From NCBI GenBank assembly GCA_964187785.1, contig OZ076409.1, positions 50,594,001-50,658,000 on the forward strand: a stretch of 64,000 nucleotides of DNA, written 5' to 3'. Below, in pieces: positions 27,053 to 51,500 of the stretch. The stretch's first letter is position 1; each line of letters starts with the position of its first letter. A program made the translations under genes and the position numbers. A model generated the notes under the pieces. It searched no databases, had not been told where the DNA came from, and saw only the letters and a list, made by a program, of their open reading frames with translations. Source of the stretch: Amphiscolops sp. MND2022. Its lineage: Eukaryota.

Positions 27053-27119
27053 CCGAATTGTGCTTTACCTTAAAATGACTTGAAATTAGTGCGTTATTGA
27101 ATGATTTGAGCTCATTTTA

Positions 27120-27362
27120 GTTGCTATAGAAACCATGATGCTACGTGCAGGCAATTGCGACATTGTAAATTGATGACTAAACACCATTAACATTAGTAGA
27201 TGTACCATGATGCGTGGCCACTTTGCGGCAGTTCACAACACCGGTCACGTGACTTACCATTTTAACACCAGCTGGTAACAGCCAATGAGAGAAGGTTGGT
27301 AAGAGATTTAGCGTTTCACCAACCGAAAAGACACGTGAACTGCTGTAATTTGGACCGCCATT
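27120..27362 (+). promoter_or_regulatory. Putative LTR promoter motif cluster
   Basis: GTTGCTATAGAAAC (RFX X-box-like, 27120-27133), palindromic GTCACGTGAC E-box (~27244), CCAAT (~27282), CACGTG (~27332), CCGCCAT (~27355). All retained in the 3' LTR. Confidence 0.45.
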
Positions 27363-27711
27363 AGCGATTACTGAGACCGAATTGCGACAAGCTACCATCC
27401 AGTTGGATAGTTCACGCCGAAAATCTACTTGAAAACATATCTCTATTTCATCTTCAGAAACTATAGAACTGAAACTGAGTAATTTCCTTGGTGCATCTAC
27501 GACTGCGATGAAAATTGGATGAACTTTCCTAACTACCTTGCTAATTTCCTTCTTCTCACCTAACGACTTACTTACTTGTACGACTTCATCTCAAACATCT
27601 CAGTTCAGATCAGTGAATTTGAGATCGAATAGCCATTTAAATAAAAAAAATACATCGAAACAGCATCTCAGATAATCCAGTCTTCACTCATAATTCTTTT
27701 CTCTCGGCTAC

Positions 27712-29217
27712 ATGAACCCAGATCAAGGTACCGAACTTAGAAGCGGTAGAGTCATAAATTCTTCGTCAGAAACATCTTCTCCAACAGATCCAGACATGGC
27801 TCCGGCGTCCGCCAATGACTCTGACAGCAACGAAACTTCAGATATCTCGTCCCAGTTGTCTGAAAGAAGAGAGAACTATGAAAGGAAGATAAATGAGTTA
27901 CAAAGCAAGTTTAGCCAACTGAAGAACTTATTAATGGCAGTTATTAGTAAAACCAATGAAAAAAACCGGCCATCGACATCGCAAAGTTCTTCAAAGCCGG
28001 TCCACACAGTGGGGCTCGACATGGTGACAGGAGCTATAGAAACCCGCTCCACCCGCCCGCCACCCAGCTTCACAAACTTCAGGAGATACCAAGAAGACGA
28101 CCCGGACGAAGAAGGCGAATCAACTCCTAGAAGCAATGAGGAACGACTACTCAATGCAATCGAGACGATCCCCCAACGGATCAAAAGCACCACCACCAAC
28201 ACGAAACTACTACAGACACACGTCCCAAATTTCAGAGGCCAAAAAGACAAATTCGTGGAATTTGAGCACCTTCTCCTCAACCACCTTAGCCCGCTCGCCA
28301 ACAAAATCACTGAGGAGAACAAACTCCACTTCTTTCAAAGCCTTTTGAGAGATGATGCAATAGAGTACTGGCAATCCATCCAGATAACGCCACTAACAAC
28401 GCTGAAAGATGTGCTCGACCTCTTCAGGAAAGAATTCGCGAAAGAGGATCTTAAAGAAGTGGCTCGCTACAAGTGGGATCAAGCCCGTTACGATCCCACA
28501 ACAGAGACATTCAGCGACTTCCTCAAAAACTTGAAAAAGACTGCGAAACAAGCCTTTGGGGATGAAGCGGATAAAATCATCAAAATGTTCTTGTTCGGCA
28601 AACTCCCAGTCGAAATACAACAAGAACTTACGATGGCCAATAAGGAGGAGAGCTCACCGGAAGAAATCAAGACATACTTGATGAGAAAGTACCAATACCA
28701 ACAGTATGCAGCGCCGCCCACGACAATTCAACCATTCAACGCAGTCACCTCCTCGGCCCCAACGACCAACACAACTACTAAACCAGCAACAACGACGACA
28801 ACGCAACCGACAGAACGAAAACAATTTGAGGGGCAATGTTTCTACTGCGGAAAGACAGGACACCGCAAAACGGATTGTCGCGCCCGACAACGAGACGAAG
28901 CAAACGGCATAAAGAAAGAGGACGCAATCCCAATGAAGAAAGTAGCTGACCCCGACAAACCAAAATACAATCCAAAGTTGGTCTGTCAGATTTGCGGTTA
29001 CACAGGCCACTCCGCAACGGATTGCAGACGACGCGTCCCCAAGGAAAGCAGCTCTGCATATGGAAAGATTCCATACACAACAAATTCACAGGACGACAAC
29101 AAGGCTAGACGACAAGATTTAAAACGACAGCAACAGCCGATGAATCCAATGCAAGCAATTACTGAAGACGACGAACAAATAAGCTACTCTGATGAAGACA
29201 TAAATCAGGGTTTTTGA
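27712..29217 (+). CDS. gag: Gag of element C (501 aa), starting inside the LTR
   Basis: Intact ORF with capsid-like VPNFRGQKDKFVEFEHL...KLHFFQSLLRDDAIEYW and two knuckles, CFYCGKTGHRKTDC and CQICGYTGHSATDC. Confidence 0.93.
   Translation: MNPDQGTELRSGRVINSSSETSSPTDPDMAPASANDSDSNETSDISSQLSERRENYERKINELQSKFSQLKNLLMAVISKTNEKNRPSTSQSSSKPVHTVGLDMVTGAIETRSTRPPPSFTNFRRYQEDDPDEEGESTPRSNEERLLNAIETIPQRIKSTTTNTKLLQTHVPNFRGQKDKFVEFEHLLLNHLSPLANKITEENKLHFFQSLLRDDAIEYWQSIQITPLTTLKDVLDLFRKEFAKEDLKEVARYKWDQARYDPTTETFSDFLKNLKKTAKQAFGDEADKIIKMFLFGKLPVEIQQELTMANKEESSPEEIKTYLMRKYQYQQYAAPPTTIQPFNAVTSSAPTTNTTTKPATTTTTQPTERKQFEGQCFYCGKTGHRKTDCRARQRDEANGIKKEDAIPMKKVADPDKPKYNPKLVCQICGYTGHSATDCRRRVPKESSSAYGKIPYTTNSQDDNKARRQDLKRQQQPMNPMQAITEDDEQISYSDEDINQGF
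28022..28033 (+). promoter_or_regulatory. Primer-binding site of element C (tRNA-Leu-like), inside the gag ORF
   Basis: TGGTGACAGGAG directly after the LTR-terminal CA; one mismatch from the tRNA-Leu PBS TGGTGTCAGGAG. LTR-LTR identity stops exactly here. Confidence 0.7.
29208..29214 (+). promoter_or_regulatory. Putative -1 ribosomal frameshift heptamer G_GGT_TTT
   Basis: XXXYYYZ heptamer immediately before the gag TGA; the pol ORF at 29214 is in the -1 frame. Confidence 0.7.
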
Positions 29218-32200
29218 TTCAGCCACGCTTTCTGCCCGCTACGAATGACACGCGCGACAAACGACTTAAGACTCAACAAACAACTCACAACCGTCCAATG
29301 AAGAAATGGCAGCCTTCAGCGTACAAACGACCAAAAGCTGATGACGTCTATCAGCGAAGACTTTCCAACGATGAAAAAGCGATGGGAAATGCACGTCAAC
29401 GCAACGGCAGCCGCTTTTCTCCACTCGCTGAAATCAACGATGAACAAACGATGAACTGGCAACAAAACACCATGAGGCAGGTGGACGATGCCAAAGAGAT
29501 GGACACCAACCATCTAGACGACGACTCGACTTCACACACAACAATCGACAAACGGCTTAGTATTAAAAAACATGCAAAACAAAGTAGTATTAACATTTCA
29601 AAAGCTAACAAACATGCAACTAAAACAGAAATTCACGTTCTTAGTCCCACTTTACATTTAAACAAGAAAGATAAAATGCTGTACGTTCCTCTTCAGTTTG
29701 ATAAATACGAAATCAACGCACTGTTAGACACAGGCGCAATTCAAAGCGCAATGTCTGAAGCAGAATTGCGAAAAAAAACAACGGCTCATCCAGAAGCCAT
29801 CCTTGAAGAACTCCCCCTTCCGAATTTCAAAATTCAAATAGCAAACGGGAACTTAGTCCCAGTGCGTAAGCAAGTCTTACTTAGATTTTACGTTGCTGGA
29901 AAAGTCTTTGAAGAAAAGTTCCTAATCCTTCCAACAAGGGGCACAATTTTAATTGGAATGTCATTCTTTGAAAAGTACTCAGTCAACTTGGACATAAAAA
30001 ATCACCTTGTCCACTTCCCCAATCACTTGATGTCCATGCAAGTTAGACAACAAAAGAACAACAGATTCAAAACTGGTTTAATTGATTTGTGTTCCAGTAC
30101 TAGAACAGTGATCCCTCCTCTCCATCAAGTGATGATACAGGTCCACAGTGACGCGGACATCTCACTTACAACTGGTAGAGTTGAGGGCTCACCTTGGATT
30201 CATGCGAAAGACGTCTGCTTGTTTCCCCAGCTTTGGTTGACCTAGATGAGGGCAAGACGACAATCCAGGTCACCAACCCGAACAACCACACGTTCACACT
30301 TGATGCCAACACCACTCTGGCACACTTTCGCATACCGACACCACATCAGGCGGCAAACATCACACCCATGCCAGTCGAACACTTGAACTTGATCACCAAG
30401 TACCCAGATGAGGCGGAAGCGGTGATCAACCAACTGTTCGTGAACCCTGACATGAAGTCAACTAAGTGGTACCCAACTCCCGAGACGTGCAGTGAGCCAG
30501 ACAAACTCACTGCAATTGAGCGACGAATCTATGATGAGATTCTGGCACTGCGAGAGCTCGAGAAGCTTGACCCGTCCCAATCCGATGAACAACGGATGAA
30601 CTTCCTGAAGAACTTCAACTGGGACGACTCGCTTCTTACTCCGTCTCAACGGTTACAGGTAGAGGAGTTGCTGGTAAAGTACAACTCCATTTTTGCTAGA
30701 CATCGTTTTGATATTGGCATGAACACTGATTTTAAAGTTAAGTTAACACCCCAACATGAAGAACCTGTTTATTCACAAAGTCTCCCTGCTCCGACAAATT
30801 TGAAGGACGATTTGCTCGTGGAGTTAGCCTTAATGCAAGAGTACGGGATTATAACTACCTTGCCTCATAGCAAATACTCATCTCCGATATTTGCTCAACG
30901 TAAACCTAATGGTAAATTGAGGATTTTAGTTGACTTGAGAAGAATAAACCACTTGATCAAAAACGATTACGGTGAACACAACCATCCCGTAACCACAATT
31001 GCTGACGCTGCCCAACACATGGCCGGGAAAAAGTACTTCTGTAAACTTGATTGTTCCCAGGCCTACCATTGCATTCCAATGGCCGATGAGCAGTCTGTCC
31101 AACTGTTATCGTTTAATTTTGGTTCTAGAACGTTTGCCTTTTTACGTCTAGCACAGGGTCTCGTAATCGTTCTTTGTCAGCATTTACAAGTGTAGTCCGT
31201 GAGAATTTGGACCCCTTGGTCAAAGCAGACCGGTGTGCTCAATATGTTGATGACATTGGAATTGCAGCACACACCCCTGACGAACTGATTCATATCCTTG
31301 AACTTGTTTTTCAGCAATTGAACAAAGCAGGTCTTAAACTTAGCATGAGTGAATGTGAATTCGGACAAAAGCAAATTGAGTACTTGGGCAAAACCATTTC
31401 TAGCACCGGTATTGCTCCCATTGAAAAACGAATAACTGATTTTCTGACCAAGTTGAAACCCCCCAATTCAGTGAAAGCGTTGCAACGTTATCTTGGTTTT
31501 GTAAACTTTTACAGGTCTTATATTCCCCGCCTAGCTGATAAAACTTGTTGTGTACAGTAATTGATCAAGAAGGACGTCCCTTTCAAGCTGAGCCAACAAC
31601 ATAAAGATGCCATTTTTGAAATCAATGAAAGTTTGTTAAAAGCAACAAAAGTGTCTCTGAAATTACCATTACTTGATAAACAATTGGTAATCATGTGTGA
31701 CGCCAGCGAACACGCTGCTGGCTATGTTTTGTTAATTGAGGATTATGCTGACCCGTCAGTCAAACAAACATACGCCCCCGTTGCATTTGGCTCTAAGAAA
31801 TTTCAGGGCGGCCAGATGTCTCTAACAATGTATGCCAAAGAGTTTTTAGCTATGCACTTTGCCTTCGATGAATTTGGCCACATTTTGTGGGGTGCGAAAA
31901 AACCCATCATTGTTATGACTGACAATAAGGCCTTGACTAGATTTTTTTCAGGCGAAGCATATCCCGCCTTCACTTTGGAATTTTTGCGATCAAACCCTTC
32001 AGTTCAATTTTTTATTAGCACATGTACCAGGAGTTGAAAATCCCGCAGCGGATTACTTATCTCGTCTTGAGATTAGACCTGAAGACCGTGTACACTTAAA
32101 ATTGACTGATACTATTCCAATTCACAGAATCGAGATCGACATCGCCTCCCGAACACCAAAACAGGAGGAAGACGAGCCTGATTACTTTCCCAAGAGCGAA

Positions 32201-34307
32201 CCACTCAAATGCAAGCGGCAGAAGGTTGTCAAAGAGATGAACTGGCACCTGGCACTGACGTGGCTCATGACGATGGGAAAGGGATGAAGTTCACCAACTG
32301 TGAGAGAACAGCGGCCTCAGATGACTTCGCGACTGACAACCAACTGACGTACCGCCTCACAGACGTGGACAAGCCGATTCAACTCTCGCAATTAATCCGT
32401 AAAGTATCATTATCACACCCGGTAATGAGTTAGGTTAGCCCCGCTGAGGGGATCGATCTAATTCAGGTCCAGAAAACTAACTGGGTTAATCAAAAAATGA
32501 TTAGATTTTTAGAAGGTACTGAAATTTTGCAACACCCAGTTAGTATGCAAGATCAGTTTTTTCAAAAGTTGCACAAAAATCGAAAACGCCTACAAGTTGT
32601 AAACGGTGTCTTGTACAGACAGTTTTTTGATCACACGGGATTGGAGTCTCACAAGCAGTTAGTTGTTCCTGAAGACTGTATTTTGAAAATAATTAGGACT
32701 CTACATAACAGCCCGGTACAAGGCCACCCTGGTTTAAAAAAATGTTGTACGAACTTCGTAAAAGATATTACTCTCCTAACTTAGCCTGTAAAGTTCAAAA
32801 AGTCCTTGACGGATGTGAAAACTGCATGAAATCTAAAAGTGTAAAAGAAACGCAACTACGTCCACCGTTACAAAAAATCTACGACCCGTGCGACGGACCA
32901 GAAAAACTGTTGGAAATAGACATCGTTGGTCCACTCCCGGCGTCGAACGGTTTTACACACATTCTGACGGCTGTTGACGTTTTTTCACGCTACCTGTTCG
33001 CCGTTCCGCTGAAGAGACCTGAAACACATTCCGTAGTCAGAAGATTACTGTCGATCTTCACGAAACACGCGTATGTGCCCAAGCACATTCTGACGGACAA
33101 GGGCACGGCGTTTACGGCTGAACTTCTGTCTGAAATCGCGAAAGCGGCTGATATTCACATCTCCCATGCCACGGTAAAGCACGCACAGACAATAGGCATG
33201 GTGGAGAGAACGCACGCGAAACTGAAAAAGATCCTTAAAATTAGTGTAAACGCAGACAGACCACAATGGGACCGCTATGTCGACATAGCAATCATGGCCC
33301 ATAACACAACGTATCATGATTCACTGAAATGTTCACCAACTGAAATTTTCCACGGCAGAACACCATACAACCCACTAGATCTGCAATTCCGAAACGCAAA
33401 CAAGCCGGCTGAAACAAAGTGCAAGGACGTGAACGAAATTCTAGACAAAATGAACTTAATCTTCAGAGACAATCTAGATAACATCATTTCCGCCTATCAC
33501 AAGTACAAAATGTACTATGATAGAAAATCACGAGCACAACCACTGAAGGTGAATGAATTTGTGTACCTACTAGATCCTAAGTACGACTCTCAGAGAAGCA
33601 AAGAAGAGTTTAAAACTTTCCATTGGAAAGGACCGTACAAGGTGATAAAAGTGCTATCCGATAGCAACTACATCATCCGCAAAGTAGGCACACACCAAAC
33701 TCAGTGCGTACATCGCATGCGACTGAGATTGTTTAAACCGGAGTTTCCGATTGATGACATCAACGTGTCTAAGCATCTTTACCCAGACACTGAAAGGGTT
33801 GAAGACACGGACATATTCGATTCGAATATTCCAACAACCGACGACGCTGATCAGAATGAGAACGAACACCTAGATCAAGACTTAGTCGAAGATGAGCCTT
33901 CAGACGAAATAGTTCCACCAGGACAAGAGCGAAACCATCCACCAGAAATTTCACCAGAAATAACCACTAGAATCGACAATCAGCAAGTAGAAACTGACCA
34001 CAATGACTTTAGACCACCTACAGTTAGATTTGGAACAGAAGACGAAATTATTCTACCGCCCCCCCGCGATGAAAGTAGAATAAGATTACCTCTGAGAGAC
34101 GAACAACACGAAAATCAGCCTCAACAGACAAACACACAAACTGAGGATGAGGAAAGGATGAGTTCTAGACCTTCTAGAAACAATCAAAGTAGGTACAGGT
34201 TACGCGAAAACCCTACACCGAAAACATACCCTGACTTCCTTATTCATGAGATTACATCAGCCAGAAACTCTCTGAGAAAGACCAACAAAGTAGACGTAAC
34301 GATTTAG
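29214..34307 (+). pseudogene. pol: Pol of element C (protease, RT, RNase H, integrase), broken by several frameshifts and stops
   Basis: ALLDTGA protease; KLDCSQAYH and YVDD (31243-31254) RT; MCDASEHAAG RNase H; HHCC-type zinc-binding region, EIDIVGP, TDKGTAF, GMVERTH, WKGPY integrase. Breaks near 30195, 31165, 31558, 31945, 32210, 32431, 32740. Confidence 0.93.
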
Positions 34308-34335
34308 CCACGAAAAACCACATTTCTAAACACAC

Positions 34336-34870
34336 GATGTGTTACGGATGAAAATTCACAAAAACGAGTCAATTACATGCAATTTCAACTTAAAACGAAC
34401 ATGAAGATGTAAAATAGATGAACAATCACTTAAAATTACATGAAATACGCAAAAAAACGAAACACGATGTAAAACGGATGAAAAACGACCAAAAAACCAG
34501 AAAAAACAACACATAAAAATTTTGAGATGAAAAAAGGATGAAATCACATGAAAATTTATCTCAGACACACGAGAGATGAAAAAGTGATAAACTTAGTCAA
34601 AAATTCGACCAATCAACATGCAATATTTACTAGCGATGCATTTGAGATGGAAAATGCCATCAGAATGCGAACGCACTCACGTTCATGCTATCATAATACT
34701 CTAGCTCGGCTAGAGGATGAAATAGCGATGAACTCGATTCAATTATTCAGAACTTACATGAAAACAATTAACGAGATGAATTTGTGATGGAAACTACCAT
34801 CAAATCGTGACCGAATTTATCGTTAGCCTGACACGATACTCTAGCTTCGCTGGAGGATGTCAAAACGACG
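34336..34870 (-). repeat. Internal cluster 1 of the dyad (GATG-N7-GATG on plus)
   Basis: Exact copies at 34336, 34406, 34466, 34526, 34635, 34716, 34775; one-mismatch copies at 34575 and 34856. Confidence 0.85.
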
Positions 34871-35145
34871 AATTTAGTCTAATTGGAAATTCGAAAATAT
34901 TAAATGACTTACGAAAACCTCCTTGTGATGGGAAACACCATCCACATAACATCACAATAAATCAGCTAATTCTCAAACAACATGTAACTCCACGAAACGA
35001 TAAAAAACCGCCGACTTTATTTCGAATCACGCAAAAATGAAATGATCAATACATGTAAGGTTCAAAGACCTGCCAAATCAATGACGTCACGAAAGAAATT
35101 GACAACTCCAAACTACATGCAATACAAATGAGCAATACACGGAAA

Positions 35146-35414
35146 TATACATGTACCGTTTAAAAAATGAACGAGATAATAGATGCAATTCACACCAAAA
35201 CAATACAAACCTAGACGAATAAAAATGAAACAAACAATCGAAAATACATGAAGCCTACTAATTTAGTTGCACGGTTTAAAAAATATAATAGTACATATAC
35301 ATGTATTGTTTAAAAAATGAACGAGATAATAGATGCAATTCACACCAAAACAATACAAACCTAGACGAATAAAAATGAAACAAACAATCGAAAATACATG
35401 AAGCCTACTAATTT
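35146..35414 (+). repeat. Tandem duplication, ~120 bp with ~150-bp period
   Basis: TATACATGTA...TTTAAAAAATGAACGAGATAATAGATGC...GAAGCCTACTAATTTA occurs twice. Confidence 0.9.
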
Positions 35415-36244
35415 ACATGCAAAATATAAGAATTGACGAAACAACCACAAAACGAATAAAGGAGTGAGCCCCCCCGGTAAACATCAGTTCATAACAAGTA
35501 AAATACCCCTATCGAAAAGCCAAAAACATTCCTTCGTGCTGGCTGGCATTTCTCTGAAAAGAGTGCTTGTTAGTTGAGGCGGGGAGCTCACAACCATATT
35601 CGGATGAAGCTTGCTGCGTTGGTTATCCAGCGGCTAGTGGATTCTCAGTTAGTTTTGTAGGGGGCTTTGTGACGACAAAGCCCTGTCCAAGTCAAGGAAC
35701 AAAAAATTTTAATAGAACATGTCAATAATGGGGCAACCCATTCAAAGGAAAACATTAAGAAAACACGCGCACATGAAACCACACGATATCACAAAACTTA
35801 ATAATTCGAAACATGCAAAGCCGTAGATGTCAATCACCCTGATTGATCAGATTAAACGTCAAATGGACAAACCCATCTCGACGTTTGATGACAAACAACC
35901 AAGCGTAAAAAATAACATGAAGACTATATATAGCTCAAAACTGAGAGATTTCATTCATCTGATAGGAGCGGAGCAGCTCCACTCACCCAGCTCTGAATTG
36001 GTACCCCATGTACCTTGCACAACGCAACGAAAATGATTAAGACACATGTACACTAAAATTCATGCAATCTCGACAACCCGACAAACGATCAACACCATAT
36101 AACACTAAAATACATGAAGAAAACACTCCGAAAACACCGCAAAATTGATAAAATACCCTCATCCACCATGAAAAACGCAATTCCCGATTAAGTTATAGCA
36201 AAATAAACACAAAAACACGCAAAATAAATATTTTCCAAAATTAC

Positions 36245-36628
36245 GATGAAAAAAAGATGAACTATGCAGCAAAATGAGCAAAAATTCGACAAGTCAAAAC
36301 TTTGAACTACAGCAAAAACAATGAACTACAGCAAATAACTCGCCAAAATGATAAAATGAAAACGCAAGATGAAAAAACGATGATCTATGTAGAAAAACCA
36401 CATAACAACACGCACTGATTCACATATAACGAACGATGTAAAAAAGATGAGAAAACAGTTTTCGCGACGTCGCTCGGCCGACTGAGGAAAACGTGATGAA
36501 AATGAGATGAAAAATCAAAACGAAGCACTGATTATCTAACTACACTTACACGAGATGTAATAACGATGAACAACATGACAAAAGTCTCCTACAAATTCTA
36601 TCAACTGAAAAGTGATGTGAAAGCGATG
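36245..36628 (-). repeat. Internal cluster 2 of the dyad
   Basis: GATG-N7-GATG at 36245, 36368, 36435, 36495, 36554, 36614. Confidence 0.85.
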
Positions 36629-39600
36629 ACCAATGAAAAACAGAGCCGCCGATTGACGCAACCTACCAAATGAACTTAACCAGTGTGAACCTAACTGAAC
36701 TCTACCTGCATTCCCACTCACTATTAACTCAAGAGAAAAACAATTTCGGGTGCCAAATGTTTAACTTGTACATAGTACACTGCCGATTTTTCCGACGCAG
36801 CGCATTTCTTCTTCTCCTCTCATGTCACTTAATGCGACATATAAAATTGGTCACCCATTTGCTAGATACAATACTATAACATACAGTAAAATAAAATAAC
36901 ATGAAAAATACAACAGTTTCAAATGAATGTGGACAAAGTACAGGCGTTAAACACCACTTTCTGGACTAGCAGCCCGCTCCCCGTTTATGCTGTACCCCAA
37001 GTTTGAATATAAGCGCAGTCTATAATCTTCGCCAGCCACAATCCCAATGTCGTCCCACAACATACTTTCGGTCAACTCGTTGAGATCGACTAAGCGCCGG
37101 TGTGACTCTGCAACTTCGTCTAGAAGAGGACCACTCACATTTTCATAGCTCCGAATACTGCTGGCAGAAAGATAGCTCACGATAATGGCACATACACCAC
37201 TCGTTACGTCGCTGCTTAAATGGCCGACTCCGTCACACAACAAAGTATTGTTACTCTGAATGCCTCCGTCCAAGCAAAATATACTTCGCAATAAATTCTG
37301 GGCACCTCGATTAGTACAATAGCACAGGGGGTCCAACACCGACAGATTCATCGCACTTCCGGTCGCCCCAGACCCACGTCGATAGCTACTGATGAATTCC
37401 AGGAAGCCACGTTCCATGTGTCCTTGCTCTGCATACGAGATTCGGCCTAACTCAACGAGAAGATCCGTAAATACCCGGATTTCGGCCAACAGAACATCTT
37501 CAGGAACAATATTGAGACTTGGCAGACTGAACACACTCCGAACAAAGGACAGATCATCCCGGACTCCTGGCAATGCGCTGACATTTTTCACTACAGTCAA
37601 AATGAAGACTGGCACTCGAGACATATCTTCATCATAAAGACATCCGCCCGCATCCACTTCGTTATTGGCACGAAAACTGTCAATCAGGACTTGCTGTTTA
37701 ACCTCGGAGATGGCATAACTCTCCACGTCCACGAACAACCAGGAACGCGTATCCTAGGCTGCTGGCAATCGGTCATCATCAACCAGAGTCGAAATCAGTT
37801 CTCTTATGAAACTGGCACTTTCCACCGCCCAGTAACAACTGCGTACTGAAGAAGCACCAAAACTCTTCTCGTAGGAATTCACCACTGAAACATTAAGGTA
37901 CAATAAATTCCACATGAAACTTGACTTGTATGACCACCCCCCCCTCACGCAAACGAAAATACCAACCTCACTAGAGCCCATCTAGAAGTGACCCGACAAG
38001 ACTTCACCAGGAATATAACAATTACTAACGAGCACGGTAAACTAGACTGAGCGCCTGAAGCCTGATTGGAATCCCAATCTCTGCACGCAAGGTCAGGTCA
38101 AGTGTGTCCAATGGTCCATCTCCACTGGCAAATCGCAACAGACACACAATGTCAGCCCAGTTACTCCTCAATTCCTCGCACACATCAGCGAGCGTCCACA
38201 CAAATACCTCACCAGTAAGAATCGCCTAAATTGTAAATAACATCATATTAATTAACTGCAACCACTGTGAAGTTCACTACAAATCGCCCCCTCAACACTC
38301 CGTTCACACATTTCTACACATAGATACCATCACATCATGAAATCATACGTACTTGCAGCAAATGCGGACACGCCAACAGCAAAGGATCCTTCACGAATCC
38401 TTTCAAGCGCTTCTGAAGATGGTTAAGAACCACATGGATATCAGTCCCACCAAGCACTTGACCAGCCACATCCACGATCGTCCGACTGACATCCGATAAC
38501 GTGAAGGATTTCACGTCCACGAGGCCAAGCCCAGCGGTGCTTCGGAACAGTCCACCCAGCTGTGGCAACGCATCACAGCACAGTCCAAGTGGAACAGGCT
38601 CTCCGAGCATGCAACACCACATGTTAACCAGCCAAGTGATCACTCGACCCTCCCAGTCACGAGCCAGATTGAAACAGAAGACAGTGTAGTGACTGACTCC
38701 GTCCATGCCACACACTGCGACCGTACCAGTCACTAGCCCTCCAGTCACTGTCAGATGGAAACTGCTGTACTCACTATTGCTCCAGATGGTAATCAGTCTC
38801 CGCATTACGTACGGCCACAAGCCAAGCAGAACAACGCTCTAAAATCAACATAAGGTCTTTCGAAACCATACATCATAATATTATACCGCCCCCCAACCCT
38901 CCGTTTCAATAGTAAACAATAGAAAATCCATACTCAGTCGAACGTAACAGAAAACGCAAAAATCAAATTTCCCACCATCACGTCGGACAACGCGCAAGTT
39001 GCCCCAAACAAGACCGCATGTTGGGGATCCGACGACACCAGCACTTCCCACAAATTAGCAACTCCACTAAAGTGACAATCGCGGTACAGAGCGTCGACCA
39101 CGAAGCACACAAATAAGCGCACAGTCTTTTCTGGCCAGTCTTCCCCCTCTTCGTCTTCCCCCCACACAGGCTGCCCAGCCCCCTCCAGTTCAAATACTTC
39201 CAAAACACTGAGTGACGGACAGGTCTCAATGAAGGGCACAGTCACCCCACCTAAGATTGCACGACACTCGGCGCTCTCTTCATTCGTCATGAGCGTTCCA
39301 TCGCGTCGCCGCAACGAAGCCCACGGTGTAAACGGATCACACAATCCTGACGGTGATGACGCAGTCCTCGGCAATGTTCCATAAAGGTGGTAATGCCTCG
39401 GCTGCCCACCTTAACGTCTCTCTTGCACATTAGGCATCGCACATACGACATGCGCGACTCGTGATTGCGTGCATATCCTAGCGCCAGCCCGCAGTATGGA
39501 TGATCAAACCATCCGGATTTGATCACCTTCTTTCCTGATAATCACAAAAAAAACAAAATGACATCATTACAAATCATCATACACAACGACTAAAATCATC

Positions 39601-39668
39601 TGTTACACATCCGCAAAATCGAAAAATGCAAAAGTAAAACGTAAACATCAAAAACGTTCACCCGGAGT

Positions 39669-40096
39669 GATGAAAACATGATGTAAAATAATATTTTCAT
39701 TGGAAATATAAGCGAAAACGAAGAAAAAACGAAAAGATGAAAAAGAGATGTGTTTGCAAGCCACCAGAACAGGAAATTGAAACTTTAAAAGACGAAAGCC
39801 TCGAAGGATGAAAAAGAGATGTATAGAACGACTTTGAACCAAAATTGAGATATTTTAGAGCGAAAATAACTTAACGATGAAAAAGAGATGTAAACCGAGT
39901 AAAACGACGATAATAGCTGAAAACGAACGAGAAAAATTCAAGGATGTAAAAGAGATGGAAAGTTCTAGAAAATGACCAGAAAAGTGAAAAGGAAGAAAAA
40001 CGCCATATTTAATACTTTTAACGATGAGAAAGTGATGGAAAATGAAAACTGCAGAAAACCATATAGTGAAAACAGAAAAACGATGGAAAATAGATG
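39669..40096 (-). repeat. Internal cluster 3 of the dyad, inside intron 4 of the cargo gene
   Basis: GATG-N7-GATG at 39669, 39736, 39807, 39876, 39943, 40023, 40082. Confidence 0.85.
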
Positions 40097-40612
40097 GACA
40101 AGAAGAAAAACGTTAAACCACGCTAGTGAAAGTGAAAACGAAAAGAGAAATGAACAAAAGTTACCGATCAGATACTTCACAGGGTTAAAGCTGTTTAGGT
40201 AACCTGGTAAACGAGACGCAATGGGCTCGTCGTCGGAGTCCACCAGACTGGGTCCCATTGGAGACGTCTCAGCAGTCGCAGGAACCAGACCGGGAACAGC
40301 ACCCTCCAGAGCAGGCTCAACGGACAGAGAATCACCAGCAGGGACATCCTCGACTGCCTCAAGAAGGGTCTCAGCGCTGTCAGTTGATGGCACGTCAGAC
40401 TGCTCAACGTCAGCCTCCACAACTTCAGGGACGCTAGCAGCTGGCGAAGAGGGAGCAGCCGAAAGAGTTTCCACAGGAGGATCGTAATCTGTGGAAGTCT
40501 CGCCAGTTTCCACAACGGCCTGAATGGACTGGTCAACAACAGCCACGCAGGCATCGACTGCCACATCCACAGGAGTGACGACGGCACTGACTCCTGCGTC
40601 TACAGTGACACG

Positions 40613-40652
40613 AGGAGGAGGAGGAGGAGGAGGAGGAGGAGGAGGAGGAGGA
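40613..40652. repeat. (GGA)n microsatellite encoding poly-Pro in cargo exon 4
   Basis: Direct GGA run; PPPPPPPPPPPPP in ORF 39965-40774. Confidence 0.9.
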
Positions 40653-42185
40653 CTTCGAATTGCTGACTCGTGGTCCAGGAATCGCTGGAAGTTCGGCGAA
40701 AGCACCGACACTGGGGCACGTGCCACTGGGGAGCTAACCGCGCCCAGGGACAAGTCCTGGAGGAACGAGGACATCTCTAGTGGGGGAGGCCCTCCTTGAG
40801 TGACAGAGTCAGCCTGCGGCGCACCAAAGTCACTCGTTTTATACCCACAGAGTAAGTGATAGGGAGAGGCCTTGGGGCGTGGATGGGAGTCCGGCCTGAA
40901 AGAAGAAAACAGAAATCAGACGACGACGAATGATGAAGAAAGTGCGCGTACACCGCGCGAAGAAAGAAAACAGGAAAAAAAGTCATCAAAAATTCATCCT
41001 CAAAAATGGAATTCGCAGCGGATCAGCCACGAAGGACTGTGAATGTCCATGACACATCCCAAATTCATCTTAAAAAATGAATTTTATAGGTAATCGACCG
41101 CGAAGGGCACTACATGCAGATGAGATGTTTATATCGGAATTACATCGGAGTGTCCGGACGATGCCTTAGTACAGACGGAAAGTGAAAAGGAGTCAACTCA
41201 CTATACTGCTGGATGCTATCTCGTAGCATGTCCCGCATGTGGCGATCATACCACCCGAAGGTGATGCTACCGAGGGAAGCATACCAAGGATAGTGATCTA
41301 AACATCAAACGGAAAGAGTCAACATCTGAAGGGACCGGAGATGAGAAATGAAGAGATTGTAGACTGAATTGAAGATCTGGAAGGACAGAACTTACACTGC
41401 GAAAGGTACGGGACGTTAGGAGACTGACCAAGCGGTTGATCAGGTTGAAACTGGGGTACGGGAGCTGCTGCTTGAACTTCAGGAGTCTCTTGAGGCGGCA
41501 CGGTCTGCAAGGTAGTCAGCTCAGAAATGACGCCGACAGAGTGAACTGAGTCCGCTAAAACCAAGACGCGTCTTCAGTACCTAATTGTTTCCTGACCCGT
41601 TTGTGAAAAAAAAGAAAAATAGTGCACTTACTTTCTGTAGCTTCAGTCTCTGGAAGAGAATAAACAGAGTGGATGTCGGACATCGCTGTAGGTTTGCAAA
41701 ACAATCTGAAAAGGAACGGAAGAGAGTGAAGAAAGGAACGAAATCGAAGAATCTGAGGACAAGAATTTGATCAGTAATTAAATGGCCTGATCAACCACGA
41801 TTGCGAGATACAAATTCACGGAAAATTTCAAAGAGCGCGAATGCGGTTTGAGTGCCAGGACAAACCAAGTACTTGAAATTCAGAAGATGAAAAATCGATG
41901 AAAACTCTCCGATTTCAATGACTGCCTACACTTTTCTTCACAGTTCAACCAACTTGACAATTTTCTCTGAAAATGAATCGCCCCCCAGAATTTGACTACA
42001 AAAGCTTCAAGTATTTGGTTTTGATGACAGCTGCCAGTCTCAGATCAATACCGACGAAGTTGAGCGGAAACGCGCAAAGGAAATCGTGGCGATTTTCAAA
42101 CCGACTTGACGGAAGATGATTCAAGGATGAGAATGTTTGTTGACAACCAGTTGGATTTCCTTCAGTTCAGAAAATTCAGTTTCAC

Positions 42186-42430
42186 CCAATCAGAATAAAG
42201 CAAGTGGTTGCTATGGCGACGATTTCATCTCTTTCTCATCGCCGAGAAATTCAGACAGCGGAAGCGACAGCTACGGTTGCTATGACAACAATTCATCTCT
42301 TTCCTATCGCGGAAATTGACAGAGCGGCGGCGCCAGCAGTCTGTTAATTCAACATCGATGTCTCGCTGAGTAAACAATTCATCGTTCATTCATCTCAAGA
42401 AAACTTCGGCAGACAAGAAATGGCGCCGAT
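42186..42430 (-). promoter_or_regulatory. Putative promoter region of the antisense cargo gene
   Basis: Two X-box-like palindromes, GTTGCTATGGCGAC (42207-42220) and GTTGCTATGACAAC (42276-42289); CCAAT at 42186; AAATGGCG near 42418. Lies 0.5-0.7 kb upstream of the predicted ATG. Confidence 0.4.
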
Positions 42431-42857
42431 TCATCGCCAAATTGTCAATGAAGCTACCAGAATGTTTACTTAGCCTAGGCGGCCTGGGGAAATCTTTTCA
42501 CCAGGAAATCGAGATTTTCACCGAAAACAATCGACAGACCGAGCTCCCATCAAAAGCATGACAACCAATAAAATGCAGATCTGCGGACATTCGATGGGCC
42601 AAGAATTAGAGTTGCCGCGTCGAAATTCTTTAACCGAAATCACCCAGGATGAAGCCAGACATGACGAGTGCCGAAAGTCCTCTTCTCAGAGAAGGTTTAC
42701 ACAGGGCAGAACAAACGAAGGAAATGCCAATTCAGAACAAACGAAGAATCAATTTTCTCCCTAACCAAACGAAGGAAACAGTCGAAGCCAACGCCGAGAC
42801 AACCATCATCTGCACATTTGGCCCCTGCACTCTCAGTCCAAATCCCGCCTCGGGGAG

Positions 42858-45088
42858 TGTCATGCCAGCATGATGGAAATATAATCTACTAAATACCTGT
42901 AATGTAAATATTATGTCTTATGTACTTAGATATGGGCAATATGGAGTCATATAATAAGAGCCATGGTTGTGAGCAACCCTACGTTACTTGTACCTTAATC
43001 CCTTCCCCCCTTGAGTGTGAGTTATATATATTTACTTAATTTTGAGCGCTCTAGTTCCGGTGTTCGTATAACTGATCTTGCCAATGGCCTTAAATGTGCT
43101 ATATTTCATGAATATTGGTTAGTCACGACAAGGGAGAGAAGTGTTCCGGTCAAGCTGGACCGAGAGATGTAGAAACGATGAAAGCTGTAACTTCTACTAG
43201 CTCCCCGCCTCAGAGTTTATAGTTGTGACAAATTCCACTAAATTCATCACAAATTCATTGTCGAATTTGGTGACGATGCTGACCTGATTTGAAATTTCAC
43301 TTGGATCCATCGGCGGATTTAACGGTGCTTTTAACCAAAGTTCATCGCAATCCCATCCTCAAAAATTGCGAGTGAACAAAGCATGTGACTGTATACTCAG
43401 ATTTCATCATAAATCCATCAGCGGATGTTATGGGATTTATTTTAGTAAAACTCATCTTTAATTCATCGCGATATCTCATTTAGAAACTCCTGAATGTGCT
43501 TCTCATTTCTAAAGAACAGTAACTCATCCTTAATTCATCGTATTCACTAGCATAGAAGGGATATGAGAAAGTACATCCTTAATCCATCCTAAAAAAGAGT
43601 GAAAGTGCTCGTTATCTGATTTGCTTAGTAAACCCATCCTTAATTCATCTTGATTTCGTTCGTGCTGAAAATTAACCATTTTAGTGGATGAGTTCATCCT
43701 AAACTCATCGCTAAATTGAATTGCCTTAGTATTTGGTCTTTTGACTGGTGAGTTCATCCTAAACTCATCGCCAATTTGTATTGCTTTGGTATTTGCTGTT
43801 TTAACTGACAAGTTCATCTTAAACCCATCGCCAAAAATTCACTTGTGCTAGAATTAGCGTTTATCGACTGAATTCATCCCGAATTCATCGTCATTTTAAT
43901 CTGTGCTGGAAATTGGCAAATTATACGTGGAGTTCATCCTTTTATCATCGTCAATTTAATTTGTGTTGATTTTCGAGCGAGAAAGACCACCATTCATCGC
44001 ATTTTCATCCAGAGCTAAACTAGAGTTGAAAATCAGCAAATATTCTTACAAGTTCAACGCATTTCCATCTTCAATTTTTAAATCATTGGTTTTGGCGCTA
44101 GAATCAGCGGAAAACATCGTTTTCCCATCCCGAATTGTGCTTTACCTTAAATTGACTTGAAATTAGTGCGTTATTGAACGATTTGAGCTCATTTTTTAGT
44201 TGCTATAGAAACCATGATGCTACGTGCAGGCAATTGCGACATTGTAAATTGATGACTAAACACCATTTACATATGTAGATGTACCATGATACGTGGCCAC
44301 TTTGCGGCAGTTCACAACACCGGTCACGTGACTTACCATTTTAACACCAGCTGGTAACAGCCAATGAGAGAAGGTTGGTAAGAGATTTAGCGTCTCACCA
44401 ACCGGAAAGACACGTGAACTGCTGTAATTCGGACCGCCATTAGCGATTACTGAGACCGAATTGCGACAAGCTACCATCCAGCTGAAAATCTACTTGAAAA
44501 CATATCTCTATTTCATCTTCAGAAACTATAGATCTGAAACTGAGTAATTTCCTTGATGCATCTACGACCGCGATGAAAAATGGAGGAACTTTCCTAACTA
44601 CCTTGCTAATTTCCTTCTTCTCACCTAACGACTTACTTACTTGTACGACTTCATCTCTAAAACATCTCAGTTCAGATCAGTGAATTTGAGATCGAATAGC
44701 CATTTAAATCAGTAAAATACATCGAAACAGCATCTCAGATAATCCAGTCTTCACTCATAATTCTTTTCTCTCGGCTACATGAACCCAGATCAAGGTACCG
44801 AACTTAGAAGCGGTAGAGTCATAAATTCTTCGTCAGAAACATCTTCTCCAACAGATCCAGACATGGCTCAGGCGTCCGCCAATGACTCTGACAGCAACGA
44901 AACTTCAGATATCTCGTCCCAGTTGTCTGAAATAAGAGAGAACTATGAAAGGAAGATAAATGAGTTACAAAGCGAGTTTAGCCAACTGAAGAACTTATTA
45001 ATGGCAGTTATTAGTAAAACCGATGAAAATAACCGGCCATCGACATCGCAAAGTTCTCCAAAGCCGGCCCACACAGTGGGGCTCGACA
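42858..45088 (+). repeat. 3' LTR of element C (2231 bp)
   Basis: Near-identical to 25778-28021; preceded by a short purine run GGGGAG (candidate PPT). Confidence 0.95.
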
Positions 45089-45429: not shown

Positions 45430-46072
45430 CAGGCTAACTTCCAGCCTTGAAAAATACGACAGCTCCAGTGCAAACCTGTCGTGGCGGAAATTTATCCAAT
45501 ATATAAAAATACAAATGCGAGCACTTGTTTTCGAACCTCCGCCGCCTCCTCCTTAGTGAAACGGAATATACTTCGGAAATAACGTCAAAAATTCGGATAT
45601 AGCGCTTTACTCCGGATATTACGTTCAATTTTCGGATGGTATTGAAAAAAAATTGGTGGATATGTATTGAAAAAACCTGATGTCAGATGAAACATGACAA
45701 TTTTGAACAGTCTCATAGTGCCAAAAAATCTGAAAGGGGGACCATTTGGGATTTTCAAACATCTATTATGTTCCAAAAAATCAAAAAAATGAAGGGGAAC
45801 CCTTTGGTACAAGCGAAAAATTTTCGAAAAAAAGTCTCATATTGCCGAAAAAAACTCCAAGTTAAAAACACGCAGATAGCCAACGTGGGAATCCTTAGTT
45901 GTTTTCAAATTTTTGGACGTCGGTTTCATAATTTTGGAAGAGGTTCTAAGGTTTGCAGTATGTTTTGGTCAAACTGAACAAATGAACAAAAAAGTGGACC
46001 TTACGCTAGTAAAAAAACTACCCACTGTAAGAGTCGGGCACTTTTTCTACTAAAATGCGCCGACTAAAAAAA
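45430..46072 (-). mobile_element. DINE-1/Helentron-like non-autonomous element
   Basis: Right end AGTCGGGC-ACTTTTTCTACTAAAAT-GCGCCGACT-AAAAAA; internal GGGGGACCATTTGGG / AAAAGTCTCAT units. Left boundary approximate. Confidence 0.65.
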
Positions 46073-46199: not shown

Positions 46200-48562
46200 T
46201 CTAAAACAAAGAAGGAAATAGCAAGACACCGGCAGAAAAAAACCCTGGAGTTCGAGAAAAACTGCAAAATAAAAGCTATTACAGGAGCAGAACTTCTGGC
46301 CTCGATTTTCTTATCACTAGAAACTAGAAAAATCTACAGGAGACTATGAGTTGAATGATAAAATGCGCACGCACAAATGACACGTCGGTTGAAGCAATAG
46401 CGGAAGCAATACATGAATACATGAATGAAAATTTAAACGAGAAAGAGATGAGATGAAATGAGTTGAAATCCGGCAACTGGAGGAGAGAAAATTAAAGTAC
46501 ACCAAAGAACAAAACGAAAGAATCCCGAAATCCAGAATATTTGACTCCAACAGATGTGGAGCACCCTATTGGACCGAAGAGCATGAATATCCGGCAAGTG
46601 GAATGAAATGGGCGGATTGCGGCACACAAGGGACATTCTGCCAAATGCTGCCGTTCCAAACGGAGAATTAACCACATAGCAGAAGAACTAAACACCGCGC
46701 ACGGAGACGCATGGAAACCGCACAGAATACATTCAATACAACAGAAGATCCACTCAATGAGAACGAAGAACAAGAACGGACCACCGTTCTATACTATAAC
46801 GCTATCGGTCATTATCCGACCAATAAAACTCATAGTTGATACAGGCTCACCGGTAAAGCTCACCCCGAAGGTAAAATTCAACAACATAAGAGCAAGAAAA
46901 CCAGTTACCGTAGACTATTGAGACGTAAACGATAATAGAATAAACTTCGAGGGTGAAACGACTGCCAACATAGAAATAGACGGCACAATTAAACAACTGG
47001 AGTTACTTATAACAACCAGGAAAACACATCCATTACTCGGATTAGATTGTATGGGAAAGCAATACATCACCCTAGAAACAGACAAACGCAGCCCAAAAAT
47101 CAATCACATATACAAACCGGAGAAGACACTGAACCGAGAAATAACAACACTAAAACGTAAGCTTCATGAATTTTTCACGAAACGTCACACGGTATTTTGT
47201 GGAAGTGAAGATCTAACTAAAAGAAGGGGCAAAATTGATGATCAAAAAGTAGACCGATACCAATTCACCAACTCTCGCAGTTGAAAAAGAAATCGAAGAA
47301 CTGGGAAAAAGTCAAGGACACGTTCAAATGGCCAAAACTATTGACCAGAACTGTTTTGTGAGCCCCGCGGTAATCATCATACAGTAACAAAGTCAGTAAA
47401 AAGTACCCTCGACGCACAGAAACTAAATGATTTTAAAGTTTAAAAAATGCGCAAAAGCCTAATATTCAAGAAATATTATCCTCAATTACCAGAACAATAG
47501 CGGACGTACCGGCCGACAAAATCTGGATATCAAAATGTGATCTGGATTACGTATGCAGCCAATTACAACCCTCGAAAACAGGAATGAACTTATGCATTTT
47601 TGCCTTCACCGGAGGAAAATTCACACGTTACTACCGATTTTCAAAAGGCTTTTTTCGGTGAGCATCCAACCAAATTCCAAGAAAAAATTGATCAAACGCT
47701 AGACAATAGGCCCCTATCTTGGTTAGACGACAGTATAGTAGTACCAGAAGGCTCTAAACAGAAACACATGGACGAATTAAAAGACGTATTGACAAAATTG
47801 GAAAACGCCGTATACAAATTGTGAAAAATCAAATCCCAAACATTCAAAACCGAAACAGAAAGGATTGACCACACGATTGTCAAGAACGGTACCAGCGTGT
47901 TCAAGACAAAGTACTAGCCAAAACAGAATTGGAAATGAAAAAGAACTTACGTAATTCCGGGGGACAGATATTCTAATGCAATTGTTCAAGAAATATAACG
48001 AATGGAACTGGACGGAAGAAGATACGAATGCTTTCGAAACATGAAACACACAACCACGGAGATACCGTGTCTGGCAAACTGCTACTCAAAGTACATGAAT
48101 ATAAAACAACGTACGCCAGTACAAAACCTCTGGGAGTCACGCTAAAGCAAGAACAACCCGGCGGTAATATAAAACCGATCAGATCGCCAATCGCTTTCTT
48201 TTCGACACGGAAAAGAAATACGCCATCATTGAATTAGAACTGCTGGCGCTGATATTGTGACTGGAACGTTTCAGTGTATACATTTACGTAATTAAAACGT
48301 AACTAAAAGGAAATACATAGTTCTCAAATAACGAAAGCCATATTACCGGCAAGCAGTTAGCACTCACGGATTATTTCAGCAGAAATCCGTCCGTTTCTCC
48401 TCAAGTCGATGACACACACAACGAAGAAGACGTAATCAAGAACATCATACGGCAATACAATTTCATAACCACATATGGTTACCTTAGCAACCATTTCAAC
48501 CAATCACAGCACGATGTAGTGAACGCAACGCCACTCAAACCAAAGAACGAACCGAAGCAATC
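46200..48562 (+). pseudogene. Decayed Gypsy gag-pol fragment (element D), similar in style to element B
   Basis: VDTGSP (~46835), HPLLGLD (~47030), SWLDD (~47720), AST-K-LGVTLKQ and ELELLAL RNase H remnants (48115-48260); many frameshifts. Confidence 0.75.
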
Positions 48563-51500
48563 CACGTATCAAATGCGCGCTTTATTCCGAGCTAATTCGC
48601 ACAAATGGGGGACCCCTGATCACAAAATTACCAAAGCAATGAAAAAAGTGTCTAAGGTATTTTGGTGTACCTGATTTTAGTCTAAGGTTTAATTAATTAA
48701 ATATATTTCAAAACGCATCAATCAGGTTACTAAAATTTGTTTCTGTTCAACGAAGGTTGTGGTTGTTGAAAAACAACAATGATGAAGACTACTTACGGCA
48801 TTTTCATTTTTTATCTCGCTGTTTTTTCCTTTATTCAAAATCGGCTATTTTGTCCCGAGCTGACAAAATAGGTCGTCAAGCACTTTTAGCTCAGCAGTTT
48901 GTTAGAAATTTTTGAACATGCTATTTTTATAGAGACTTACGTAGTTCCTGGGCGCAATTCTGTGTTTGTTCAAATACAATGAAAATCAATCTTTCAATCT
49001 TTCAGCCCAGACAGATATTGTAATGCAATTGTTCAAGAAATATAACGAATGGAACTGGACGGAAGAACATACGAATGCTTTAGAAAATTTGAAACACAAA
49101 ATCACGGAGATACCGTGTCTGGCAAACTGAAACTCAAAGTACGTGAATATAATAACAACGGACGCCAGTACAAAACGTCTAGGAGTCACGCTAAAGCAAG
49201 AACAACCCGTTGCTAATATAAAACCGATCAGATCGCCAATCGCTTTCTTTTCGACACGGAAAAGAAATACGCCATCATTGAATTAGAACTGCTGGCGCTG
49301 ATATTGTGACTGGAACGTTTCAGTGTATACATTTACGTAATTAAAACGTAACTAAAAGGAAATACATAGTTCTCAAATAACGAAAGCCATATTACCGGCA
49401 AGCAGTTAGCACTCACGGATTATTTCAGCAGAAATCCGTCCGTTTCTCCTCAAGTCGATGACACACACAACGAAGAAGACGTAATCAAGAACATCATACG
49501 GCAATACAATTTCATAACCACATATGGTTACCTTAGCAACCATTTCAACCAATCACAGCACGATGTAGTGAACGCAACGCCACTCAAACCAAAGAACGAA
49601 CCGAAGCAATCCAAAACGCGTGAACAAACCGTCATTGATTGCTCTAACGAAACGCTAGAAAGTCGCGCAATTTTTGCAACAGCAAAAAACAAATTGGTAT
49701 TGGACAATTGAAAACTTAGATATCGCTGACTCCTATAGGATATAAGTTATTACAAGGAATATTATAAGGATTCGTATCTAATGCACTATTTAATGTTTCG
49801 GTATCCGAAACATTGCAGATTTTGCCAGGAAAGAGGGATTGAGTCTAATTGATTTTGAGATTCCAAATCTTTTGAAAATGAATGGAAATAAAAACGTTTT
49901 CTGATTGGAGTATAGCTAGAGGACAAACTCCAGACACTATTATGTTATTGTCATTAATTAGTCTGAAGGACCTGCTACTGTAATATTATGTTGATATTGT
50001 AAACACTACTCAGTATTAAATGAAACAACGTGAAAAACATTTCTTTTTTGGAATAATAGAATACAACATTGATATTGGGTAAATAACAACAAAAAGCGCT
50101 ACATCCAAATCAATGACGTTATTTGCAAATTGTTCAAAACAAGTTTGACCAGGTTTTGTTTGGCGCAACTAGTTGGATTTAATACACTTCTTGGAACGTT
50201 TTTAGGAAATATAAACCTTCGAAAGTGTTCTGCGATGGAATGTATTTGTCTTTCTCAATATTTCAAAGGAACATTATTTGTCCCAGAAAAGTTTGTTAAG
50301 TTATGACACCACAATCCGACCAAAAAAGCGTCAAATTTCCAGAACTCAACGACTCAACGAACAAAGCAAACCTAGAAGCAAACCCTTCGTAGGAAATCTT
50401 GTTTCAAAGCGCTTCGAGCGACGTGTGAACCACGGGACAACGAGTGGTTCACTGGGCAAGAAAAACAATCAGCGTTGTAAAGTCAGAACACAAAGTGGAA
50501 ATTGCAAACAAAAGTGGGTTAAGTTTTGATATGTTATCGACTTAGAAACAGAACTTCACATGTCCAAGCTCAATAGTTATTACAAACTCAGTTACACGCC
50601 ATGTTACCACAGGTTCATTTCTTCAGAGATGTTTCAACGGTGTGACGATCAGCCCTTCACTTTTCGGGCATTTTAAGGAGAGCACAGGGAACAGAAACAG
50701 TTGTTGTTGCAAAACCACAGCGCAAAGTACAACTTCAAGCATCTAGGTGAACGAAAATAATTTATCGAGTGAAAAAAAAATGTTTCCGTTTGACGGGGAG
50801 CGGAACAAAAACGTTCTGAAAGGAGGCAAAATAGCCGATTTGGTAATAAAGACAAAAAGGCCTATTTGTAAAACGGGACAAAACAGTCAAATTTCAAAAG
50901 AGAACAAAATAACCGGTTGTTTCTTCACGTATCAAATGCGCGCATTATTCCAAGCTAATTAGCACAAATGGGAGACCCCTGATCACAAAATTACCAAAGC
51001 AATGAAAAAAGTGTCTAAGGTATTTTGATGTACCTGATTTTAGTCTAAGGTTTAATTAATTAAATATATTTCAAACGCATCAATCAGGTTACTAAAATTT
51101 GTTTCTGTTCAACGGAGGTTGTGGTTGTTGAAAAACAACAATGATGAAGACTACTTACGGCATTTTCATTTTTTATCTCGCTGTTTTTTCCTTTATTCAA
51201 AATCGGCTATTTTGTCCCGAGCTGACAAAATAGGTCGTCAAGCACTTTTAGCTCAGCAGTTTGTTAGAAATTTTTGAACATGCTATTTTAATAGAGACTT
51301 ACGTAGTTCCTGGGCGCAATTCTGTGTTTGTTCAAATACAATGAAAATCAATCTTTCAATCTTTCAGCCCAGACAGATATTGTAATGCAATTGTTCAAGA
51401 AATATAACGAATGGAACTGGACGGAAGAACATACGAATGCTTTCGAAATTTTGAAACACAAAATCACGGAGATACCGTGTCTGGCAAACTGAAACTCAAA

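Follow-up and report, generated by a model that had tools for sequence, protein, structure and literature searches.

Host genes have arisen from hAT transposases, among them the ZBED family and DAYSLEEPER, which combine a BED finger with a hAT body and are often without catalysis. In Arabidopsis, VANC proteins (VANDAL/MULE) bind short motifs that have accumulated within their own elements, in tandem arrays, in introns and in other non-coding regions (PMC5735166), and TnpA (Spm) is reported to derive from a transposase, the DDE residues having been lost repeatedly in such regulators (bioRxiv 10.64898/2026.08.24.746577). In plants and fungi, long terminal repeat (LTR) retrotransposons are known to carry additional open reading frames (ORFs) in antisense orientation, for which a regulatory, DNA-binding role has been proposed; these accounts describe their origin as mostly unknown and give no similarity to transposable elements that would support a nested-transposon origin (PMC7264820, PMC11963269). 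LTR elements of bdelloids (PMC5408684) and planarians (PMC6431247) carry other cargo, and a literature search of partial coverage brought up no LTR element described as carrying a gene derived from a hAT transposase. Here we analyse a 64,000-nucleotide stretch of Amphiscolops sp. MND2022 DNA (contig OZ076409.1, positions 50,594,001 to 50,658,000; hereafter the window), in which a decayed Ty3/Gypsy retrotransposon carries on its minus strand a cargo gene that very probably descends from a hAT-type transposase. We put the probability that this antisense protein serves as the element's own DNA-binding regulator, activating or shielding the element, at about 0.5.

The element spans positions 25778-45088 (19,311 bp). 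Its LTRs begin with TG, end with CA and are 97.1% identical (mismatches 2.0%), and between them lie a primer-binding site (PBS)-like start, a polypurine tract (PPT)-like tract and a pol region with the order protease, reverse transcriptase, RNase H and integrase. The flanking ACAAA and ACAAT represent a 5-bp target-site duplication with one mismatch. The interval between pol and the 3′ LTR measures 8.5 kb and contains the cargo gene, antisense to the element, as in the class of additional ORFs termed aORF-3R. Maize Grande gene23, rice RIRE2, Retand TRP28 and Botrytis Boty share this position and orientation, whereas the cargo gene differs from them in having an identifiable, near full-length DNA-transposase ancestor and candidate target motifs.

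The cargo gene is predicted to comprise exons 4 to 8, all on the minus strand, possibly preceded by three small exons within 41252-41683 (ATG at 41683), for which splice sites were inspected by eye and the boundaries are uncertain. Predicted exon 4 (40165-40895) encodes about 243 residues of Pro-rich, acidic, low-complexity sequence (16% Pro, 14% Asp plus Glu, 3% Lys plus Arg). Predicted exon 5 (38976-39534) encodes a BED-type zinc finger (39356-39511; intact in this copy) and a pre-catalytic helical segment, exon 6 (38353-38838) an RNase H-like segment, and predicted exon 7 (38030-38225) the start of an insertion domain. The rest of this domain, which is helical and extends as far as the catalytic Glu position, is encoded by exon 8 (36947-37884) and is followed by a family-specific tail ending in G-x-R-x-x-S-P-E. 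The four predicted introns (40164-39535, 38975-38839, 38352-38226 and 38029-37885) are bounded by GT and AG, are phase-consistent, and have a lower G+C content (0.32-0.42) than the exons (0.48-0.58). Exons 4-8 amount to about 970 residues with two breaks, marked X in the translation: a frameshift near 39320 in exon 5 and an in-frame stop at 37754-56 in exon 8. What at first looked like a frameshift in exon 7 is accounted for by a donor site at 38029. No second copy of the cargo gene was found in the window.

A first-pass annotation, made from the sequence of the window, had taken this gene for a catalytically dead, highly diverged hAT transposase. The peptides that it quoted all lie on the minus strand in the order that it gave, and its span of 36947-39534 runs from the stop codon to the start of exon 5. 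The finger, CLMCK..H..H, has its Cys codons at 39434-36 and 39425-27 and its His codons at 39374-76 and 39356-58; the Trp that had been placed in a W-x-C motif (39509-11) sits 25 codons upstream of the first Cys, and this wording does not hold. Downstream, the RLFVCFVVDALYRDCHFSG peptide lies at about 39075, the Asp of LGLCCDA at 38572-74, and LLRSIFCL at about 37274.

The comparison with hAT transposases was made through an intermediate family. The cargo peptides resembled a transposase family with the motif SMDGPNVN. This motif, used as a DNA pattern, retrieved 126 loci, most of which appear by eye to form one family, and the 32 longest frames among them were aligned (alignment A6). This family from metagenomes (hereafter the donor family; for example, loci L002, L011, L024, L029, L038 and L056) has a BED-type finger, FDES, SMDG (within SMDGPNVN), CGLH, RW and VERGFS. 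We consider it hAT-type because of these motifs and because it matches a canonical hAT set, six frames retrieved by means of another motif, in an alignment of 300 columns (E = 1e-4) that keeps both Asp residues, CxxH and RW in register; the canonical set in turn matches Hermes at E = 4e-43. The donor family gave no Pfam hAT hit (0 of 32 frames with a hAT domain, Dimer_Tnp_hAT included) and no PDB hit, and a look for terminal repeats at 21 of its loci revealed none. Its near-invisibility to Pfam explains the blank Pfam result for the cargo, where Pfam searches with window pieces and homologues yielded only sub-threshold hits: zf-BED matched the exon 5 finger at E = 0.032, short of the cut-off, and Dimer_Tnp_hAT (PF05699) had no hit in 27 plus 21 homologues. 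Among the retrieved loci, L002:494-2584 and L007-L126 represent a widespread hAT-type transposase family with almost no Pfam coverage; the L002 gene lies on a short contig of a bacterial metagenome-assembled genome and is probably eukaryotic contamination, and L133, L138 and L143 likewise carry genes for canonical hAT proteins within prokaryote assemblies.

Profile-profile comparison supports descent from such a transposase. The last cargo exon matches the donor family at an hhalign E-value of 7.2e-5 over 198 columns, and at 1.3e-5 when trimmed, with an alignment that closes at the ERGFS motif without gaps; the score was reached in 0 of 25 column shuffles for the trimmed exon, and in 0 of 150 in a further set for the helical insertion domain. 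The predicted model of exon 8 is all-helical (pLDDT 59). The BED-like finger matches the donor profile at E = 0.006 and then at 1.4e-4 (0/60 shuffles, z 5.1-5.9), and a GL-x-PY segment is common to the cargo and the donor family. The whole cargo region is colinear with the donor profile, the first residues of exon 5 falling at the donor N terminus (0/40 local shuffles), and an anchored global profile alignment of this region, computed with our own script, reached z = 7.5 (0/60 shuffles). By the same method, the pre-catalytic helical segment together with the start of exon 6 gave z = 4.2. The RNase H-like core fared unevenly, with z = 2.8 in the anchored global alignment (1/300 shuffles) and no score above shuffles in local mode. 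Exon 7 alone did not rise above shuffles; its Trp (38196-98) aligns with that of the hAT RW motif, and the Arg is absent. In single-sequence hhalign runs against the donor family, neither the 3′ part of exon 5 nor exon 7 gave a match. For the dimerisation tail proposed to follow the Glu position, the cargo and donor tails do not match (z = 1.6). The highly diverged hAT relationship put forward in the first-pass annotation is supported by profile-profile tests, through the intermediate family only, and it is through this family that the cargo can be linked to Hermes and the canonical hAT proteins (Ac group), with which it shares the order of blocks.

Compared directly with the canonical proteins, the cargo matched none of them in sequence, in profile or in fold. 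Searches of the PDB by sequence and by profile returned nothing relevant. The proposed check by AlphaFold and Foldseek was limited by poor models (pLDDT 59 and 48, for exons 8 and 6, respectively), and Hermes was not among the matches; Foldseek and VIA fold searches with these two weak models, which exclude nothing, had best Z scores of 3.7 and 5.9 and no clear match. The low-confidence exon 6 model has the helix-strand-strand-strand-helix order expected of an RNase H fold. In the ESM Atlas, every named neighbour of exon 6 belongs to a DDE transposase family of the RNase H clan, mostly MULE, at scores of 0.81-0.84 that serve as a lead only, and exon 8 gave no usable match. Of the 109 inverted repeats in 34300-42900, the 25 longest include no pair that encloses the gene as the terminal inverted repeats of a hAT transposon, next to an 8-bp target duplication, would; the long-range pairs are motif-to-motif matches.

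In Muta1 and Hermes, the catalytic D, the His of CxxH, the W and the E are each required (PMC5225508). We assigned the corresponding cargo columns from a motif-based alignment by eye and from predicted secondary structure. With these columns, the first Asp is absent, as had been proposed, strand 1 (38743-60) being acidic in 0 of the 67 homologues that cover it. The second Asp is present in all 83 homologues covering it, its column assignment being inferred. CxxH is replaced at about 38503 in the cargo and absent from the equivalent place in all 30 rows. The ERxFS Glu, also thought to be lost, corresponds to an Asn (37247-49) in a column that is acidic in 1/37 rows, the most divergent one. Most of the catalytic residues thus appear to be missing from the cargo protein, and because the strand-1 Asp, CxxH and Glu are gone it is, as far as its sequence can tell, not a member of the active hAT family. 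Compared with the donor family, it shares the BED-type finger, the GL-x-PY segment, the second Asp, an aligned Trp and the helical insertion domain up to the Glu position, in the same order. It has neither the first Asp nor CxxH, nor the Glu, and the Arg of the RW pair is missing too; it has in addition a Pro-rich, acidic N-terminal extension, a different C-terminal tail, introns and an antisense location in an LTR element.

The element also contains a candidate target for such a protein. The word GATGAA occurs 6-11 times per kb in its non-coding parts and about once per kb in the flanks. The underlying unit, newly noted here, is a direct dyad, GATG-N7-GATG: within 7,134 bp of non-coding element DNA, 44 GATG pairs stand at a spacing of 11 and none at 10 or 12, whereas 44,689 bp of flank contain a single pair at 11. 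Across the window there are 71 such sites (1.72 expected), 70 of them inside the element, or 52 if one LTR is counted. The sites are arrayed with a periodicity close to 60 bp, on the minus strand in the LTR and on the plus strand in two stretches of the pol-cargo spacer (34336-34789 and 36245-36628, ~60-bp spacing) and in cargo intron 4 (39535-40164; 8 sites, 7 on the plus strand at 59-80-bp spacing). The sites are densest in both LTRs, with 18 in the 5′ copy and 16, including a run at exactly 60-bp spacing, in the 3′ copy, and are absent from the very LTR tips. The DNA around them is 0.28-0.38 identical within arrays, near background, suggesting that the dyad and its period were kept while the rest drifted. 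Mismatches between the LTRs are equally frequent at motif columns (3/152) and elsewhere (42/2075), as expected after insertion. Paired half-sites that are separated by one turn and occur in both orientations would suit a protein that binds double-stranded DNA as a dimer, and the accumulation of a short motif in the non-coding parts of the element that encodes the protein is what would be seen with a self-targeting regulator. The motif is not enriched in the donor loci, whose 233 kb contain 15 sites. Viral contigs scanned for triple motifs returned 59 loci, none with similarity to the cargo or pol, and an Rfam search gave no match. Seven of the GATG-N7-GATG sites in the element lie in gag-pol coding DNA (29370-29501, 29787, 30584, 32272 and 34146), several of them in linker-like stretches.

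These features can be combined into a mechanism that we consider the most likely. An ancestral Gypsy element would have received a hAT element in reverse orientation, and the hAT element would have lost its ends; the first Asp, CxxH and the Glu would have decayed while the BED finger and the helical scaffold were retained. The introns of the cargo would have survived because they are antisense to the genomic RNA. If the protein oligomerises as hAT transposases do, two BED fingers could occupy the two GATG half-sites, which are separated by 11 bp or one helical turn, and the protein could coat the LTRs, the spacer and its own intron. The acidic, Pro-rich N terminus may then recruit transcription or chromatin factors, resulting in activation or in shielding from silencing, a mode of action like that of VANC and TnpA for plant DNA transposons.

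The same origin and the same dead site would also allow the protein to act on the complementary DNA (cDNA) of the element, in nuclear entry, in end pairing or in tethering the integration complex to chosen chromatin, and among the alternatives to a DNA-binding regulator this one, although improbable, survives best. hAT transposases pair the ends of their elements by BED binding to subterminal repeats, and the motifs here are most concentrated in the two LTRs. Moreover, nuclear functions have been proposed for plant antisense ORFs (PMC7264820). However, arrays also lie deep inside the element, in the spacer, in intron 4 and, with seven sites, in gag-pol, and not at the LTR tips, and a long acidic N terminus would better suit transcription.

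The homologues of the cargo bear on a second alternative. Those of the last exon fall into 28 clusters with 337 member sequences (36-98% identity), and those of exon 6 into 21 clusters with 114 members (67-94% identity). A full profile scan of 1.84 billion representatives gave 82 matches, none longer than 367 residues, which reach down to 17-26% identity and include several deep clades; the homologue records whose source is shown are proteins from ENA contigs. Conservation begins at the predicted splice acceptor, and two distant homologues without the exon 7/8 intron (P0205 and P0236) are colinear with the cargo across this junction and ungapped there, which points to intron gain or loss within the family. 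The many diverged clusters, the similarity bounded by the acceptor and the colinear intronless homologues together argue for a gene kept as a protein rather than a chance frame. On these comparisons, the cargo is an old, multi-copy gene family with hundreds of homologues, retained for its protein. Searches for longer homologues (470-2000 residues) found none, which is weak evidence, and no related locus was found in metagenomes, genomes, viral contigs or phages. As the gene cannot move itself and yet has hundreds of conserved copies, it most simply rides in the retrotransposon, and we infer that this holds across the copies. The C-terminal tail (36950-37000; W..VG.V....YR......G....G.R..SPE) ranks with the most strongly conserved parts of the protein between clades only ~20% identical; it is without a match in the donor transposases and may be a new site of interaction or of phosphorylation.

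That the gene is a nested hAT relic or a passenger without a role for the retrotransposon, the motif arrays being bound by a host factor or paired as RNA (CAUC..CAUC of the LTR with internal GAUG..GAUG), is less probable again than a role on the cDNA. The copy is broken, nested insertions are common, and the LTR and internal arrays are oppositely oriented and hence complementary on the genomic RNA; the genomic context of the other copies is, moreover, assumed. Against such a relic, frames of exon length have stayed open and conserved across clades at 20% identity despite the lost catalytic residues, no terminal repeats are seen around the gene, and the A/T-rich N7 spacers are neither complementary nor conserved.

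Retained or regained nuclease activity, built on the second Asp and other invariant acids, is very unlikely. The second Asp is invariant, as are E62 and D132 in exon 6, and in one clade a Glu adjoins the expected column. Nevertheless, an RNase H-fold nuclease needs its strand-1 Asp for catalysis, and the 67 homologues have no acid on this strand, CxxH is lost and the Glu column is variable. Descent from another DDE transposase (MULE/Mutator or ISL3-like), or a likeness due in part to chance, is equally hard to credit: in the Atlas, exon 6 falls next to the MULE, Transposase_mut, ISL3 and ZSWIM RNase H-like clusters, there is no direct canonical hAT match and hhalign probabilities reach only 40-81%, but the Atlas scores stay below 0.9, a range of low recognition, and the BED finger and insertion domain both match one hAT-type family in the right order and spacing, hAT profiles being those compared.

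Several observations weigh against a hAT-derived, self-targeting regulator. In local hhalign, the RNase H core scored no better than shuffles (z = -0.2, E = 0.33), and the resulting alignment did not keep the register of the motif-based one. Run in global mode on the whole cargo region against the donor family, hhalign had no signal, and direct comparison of the cargo with canonical hAT profiles gave E-values of 0.31-0.46, no match. The end points of the anchored global test were chosen by the analyst, and column shuffles break helical periodicity, which inflates the z values. In the active site, the columns of the first Asp and CxxH were placed by the by-eye alignment, the loss of the first Asp was scored on exon 6 homologues at 67-94% identity rather than on the distant clades, and 6 of the 37 rows have an acid no more than one column away from the Glu. 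The homologues in hand cover exons 6 and 8, almost none covers exon 7, and none covers the BED exon or the N terminus; we assume that other copies, too, lie inside LTR elements and have the motif. What links protein and motif is their shared location in the element, and a host factor could be the binder. The present copy is broken in both pol and the cargo.

The remaining parts of the element follow the Gypsy plan. The 5′ LTR (25778-28021, plus strand) contains the start of the gag frame and is followed by the PBS-like TGGTGAC. The gag-like ORF (27694-29217, plus strand; 507 codons from stop to stop) is identified as gag by its position and by CCHC-type knuckles seen by eye. Its frame begins ~300 bp within the LTR (27694-28021; counterpart in the 3′ LTR, 44761-45088), so that an N-terminal coding stretch is duplicated in the 3′ LTR. 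The pol region (29196-34307, plus strand) is broken into several frames, with the Pfam domains gag-asp_proteas, RVT_1, RT_RNaseH, Integrase_H2C2 and rve in Gypsy order. The pol-cargo spacer (34308-36946) includes a 150-bp direct duplication (35145-35432), and the 3′ LTR (42858-45088, plus strand) is preceded by the PPT-like GGGGAG.

Outside the element, a ~2.36-kb unit is repeated two to three times at 95-97% identity in 47963-53640, adjoining pol-like fragments (46922-47284). A 721-codon ORF (3249-5414, minus strand) with a gag-like end by eye belongs to another retroelement, one without the dyad motif. A dispersed repeat family with ~60/120-bp subunits containing GAAGGGGGACCCTTT occurs in both orientations (15649-16409, 23920-24495, 45705-45861, 57056-57451 and 63094-63351). 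A fragment resembling a Tc1/mariner transposase by eye (62051-62602, plus strand) and a 232-bp imperfect palindrome (22776-23007) complete the features seen.

Among described systems, VANC and TnpA likewise pair an accessory protein with short motifs accumulated in the same element. They act within plant DNA transposons, as shown by chromatin immunoprecipitation and electrophoretic mobility shift assays, whereas the cargo would cross from a DNA transposon to a retrotransposon, has no apparent sequence link to them and is known from sequence alone; the words 'retrotransposon' and 'LTR' do not occur in the main text of the report on TnpA and related regulators (bioRxiv 10.64898/2026.08.24.746577). 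The ZBED family and DAYSLEEPER are fixed host genes, whereas the cargo is multi-copy and carried by a mobile element. Tentatively, and with somewhat less confidence than for the regulator itself, we suggest that a whole Gypsy lineage may have domesticated a hAT transposase as an anti-silencing or trans-activating factor, the BED finger of each subfamily co-evolving with a private dyad motif, in a VANC-like arrangement that would span transposon classes and lie outside plants. For an antisense extra gene, an ancestor can here be named, a DNA transposase, and a candidate motif is visible, which makes the question directly testable. If our reading is correct, an enzyme of one transposon class would have been domesticated by another, retrotransposons would share with plant DNA transposons a sequence-specific self-activation encoded by the element itself, and the diverged subfamilies would constitute a natural series of finger-motif pairs.

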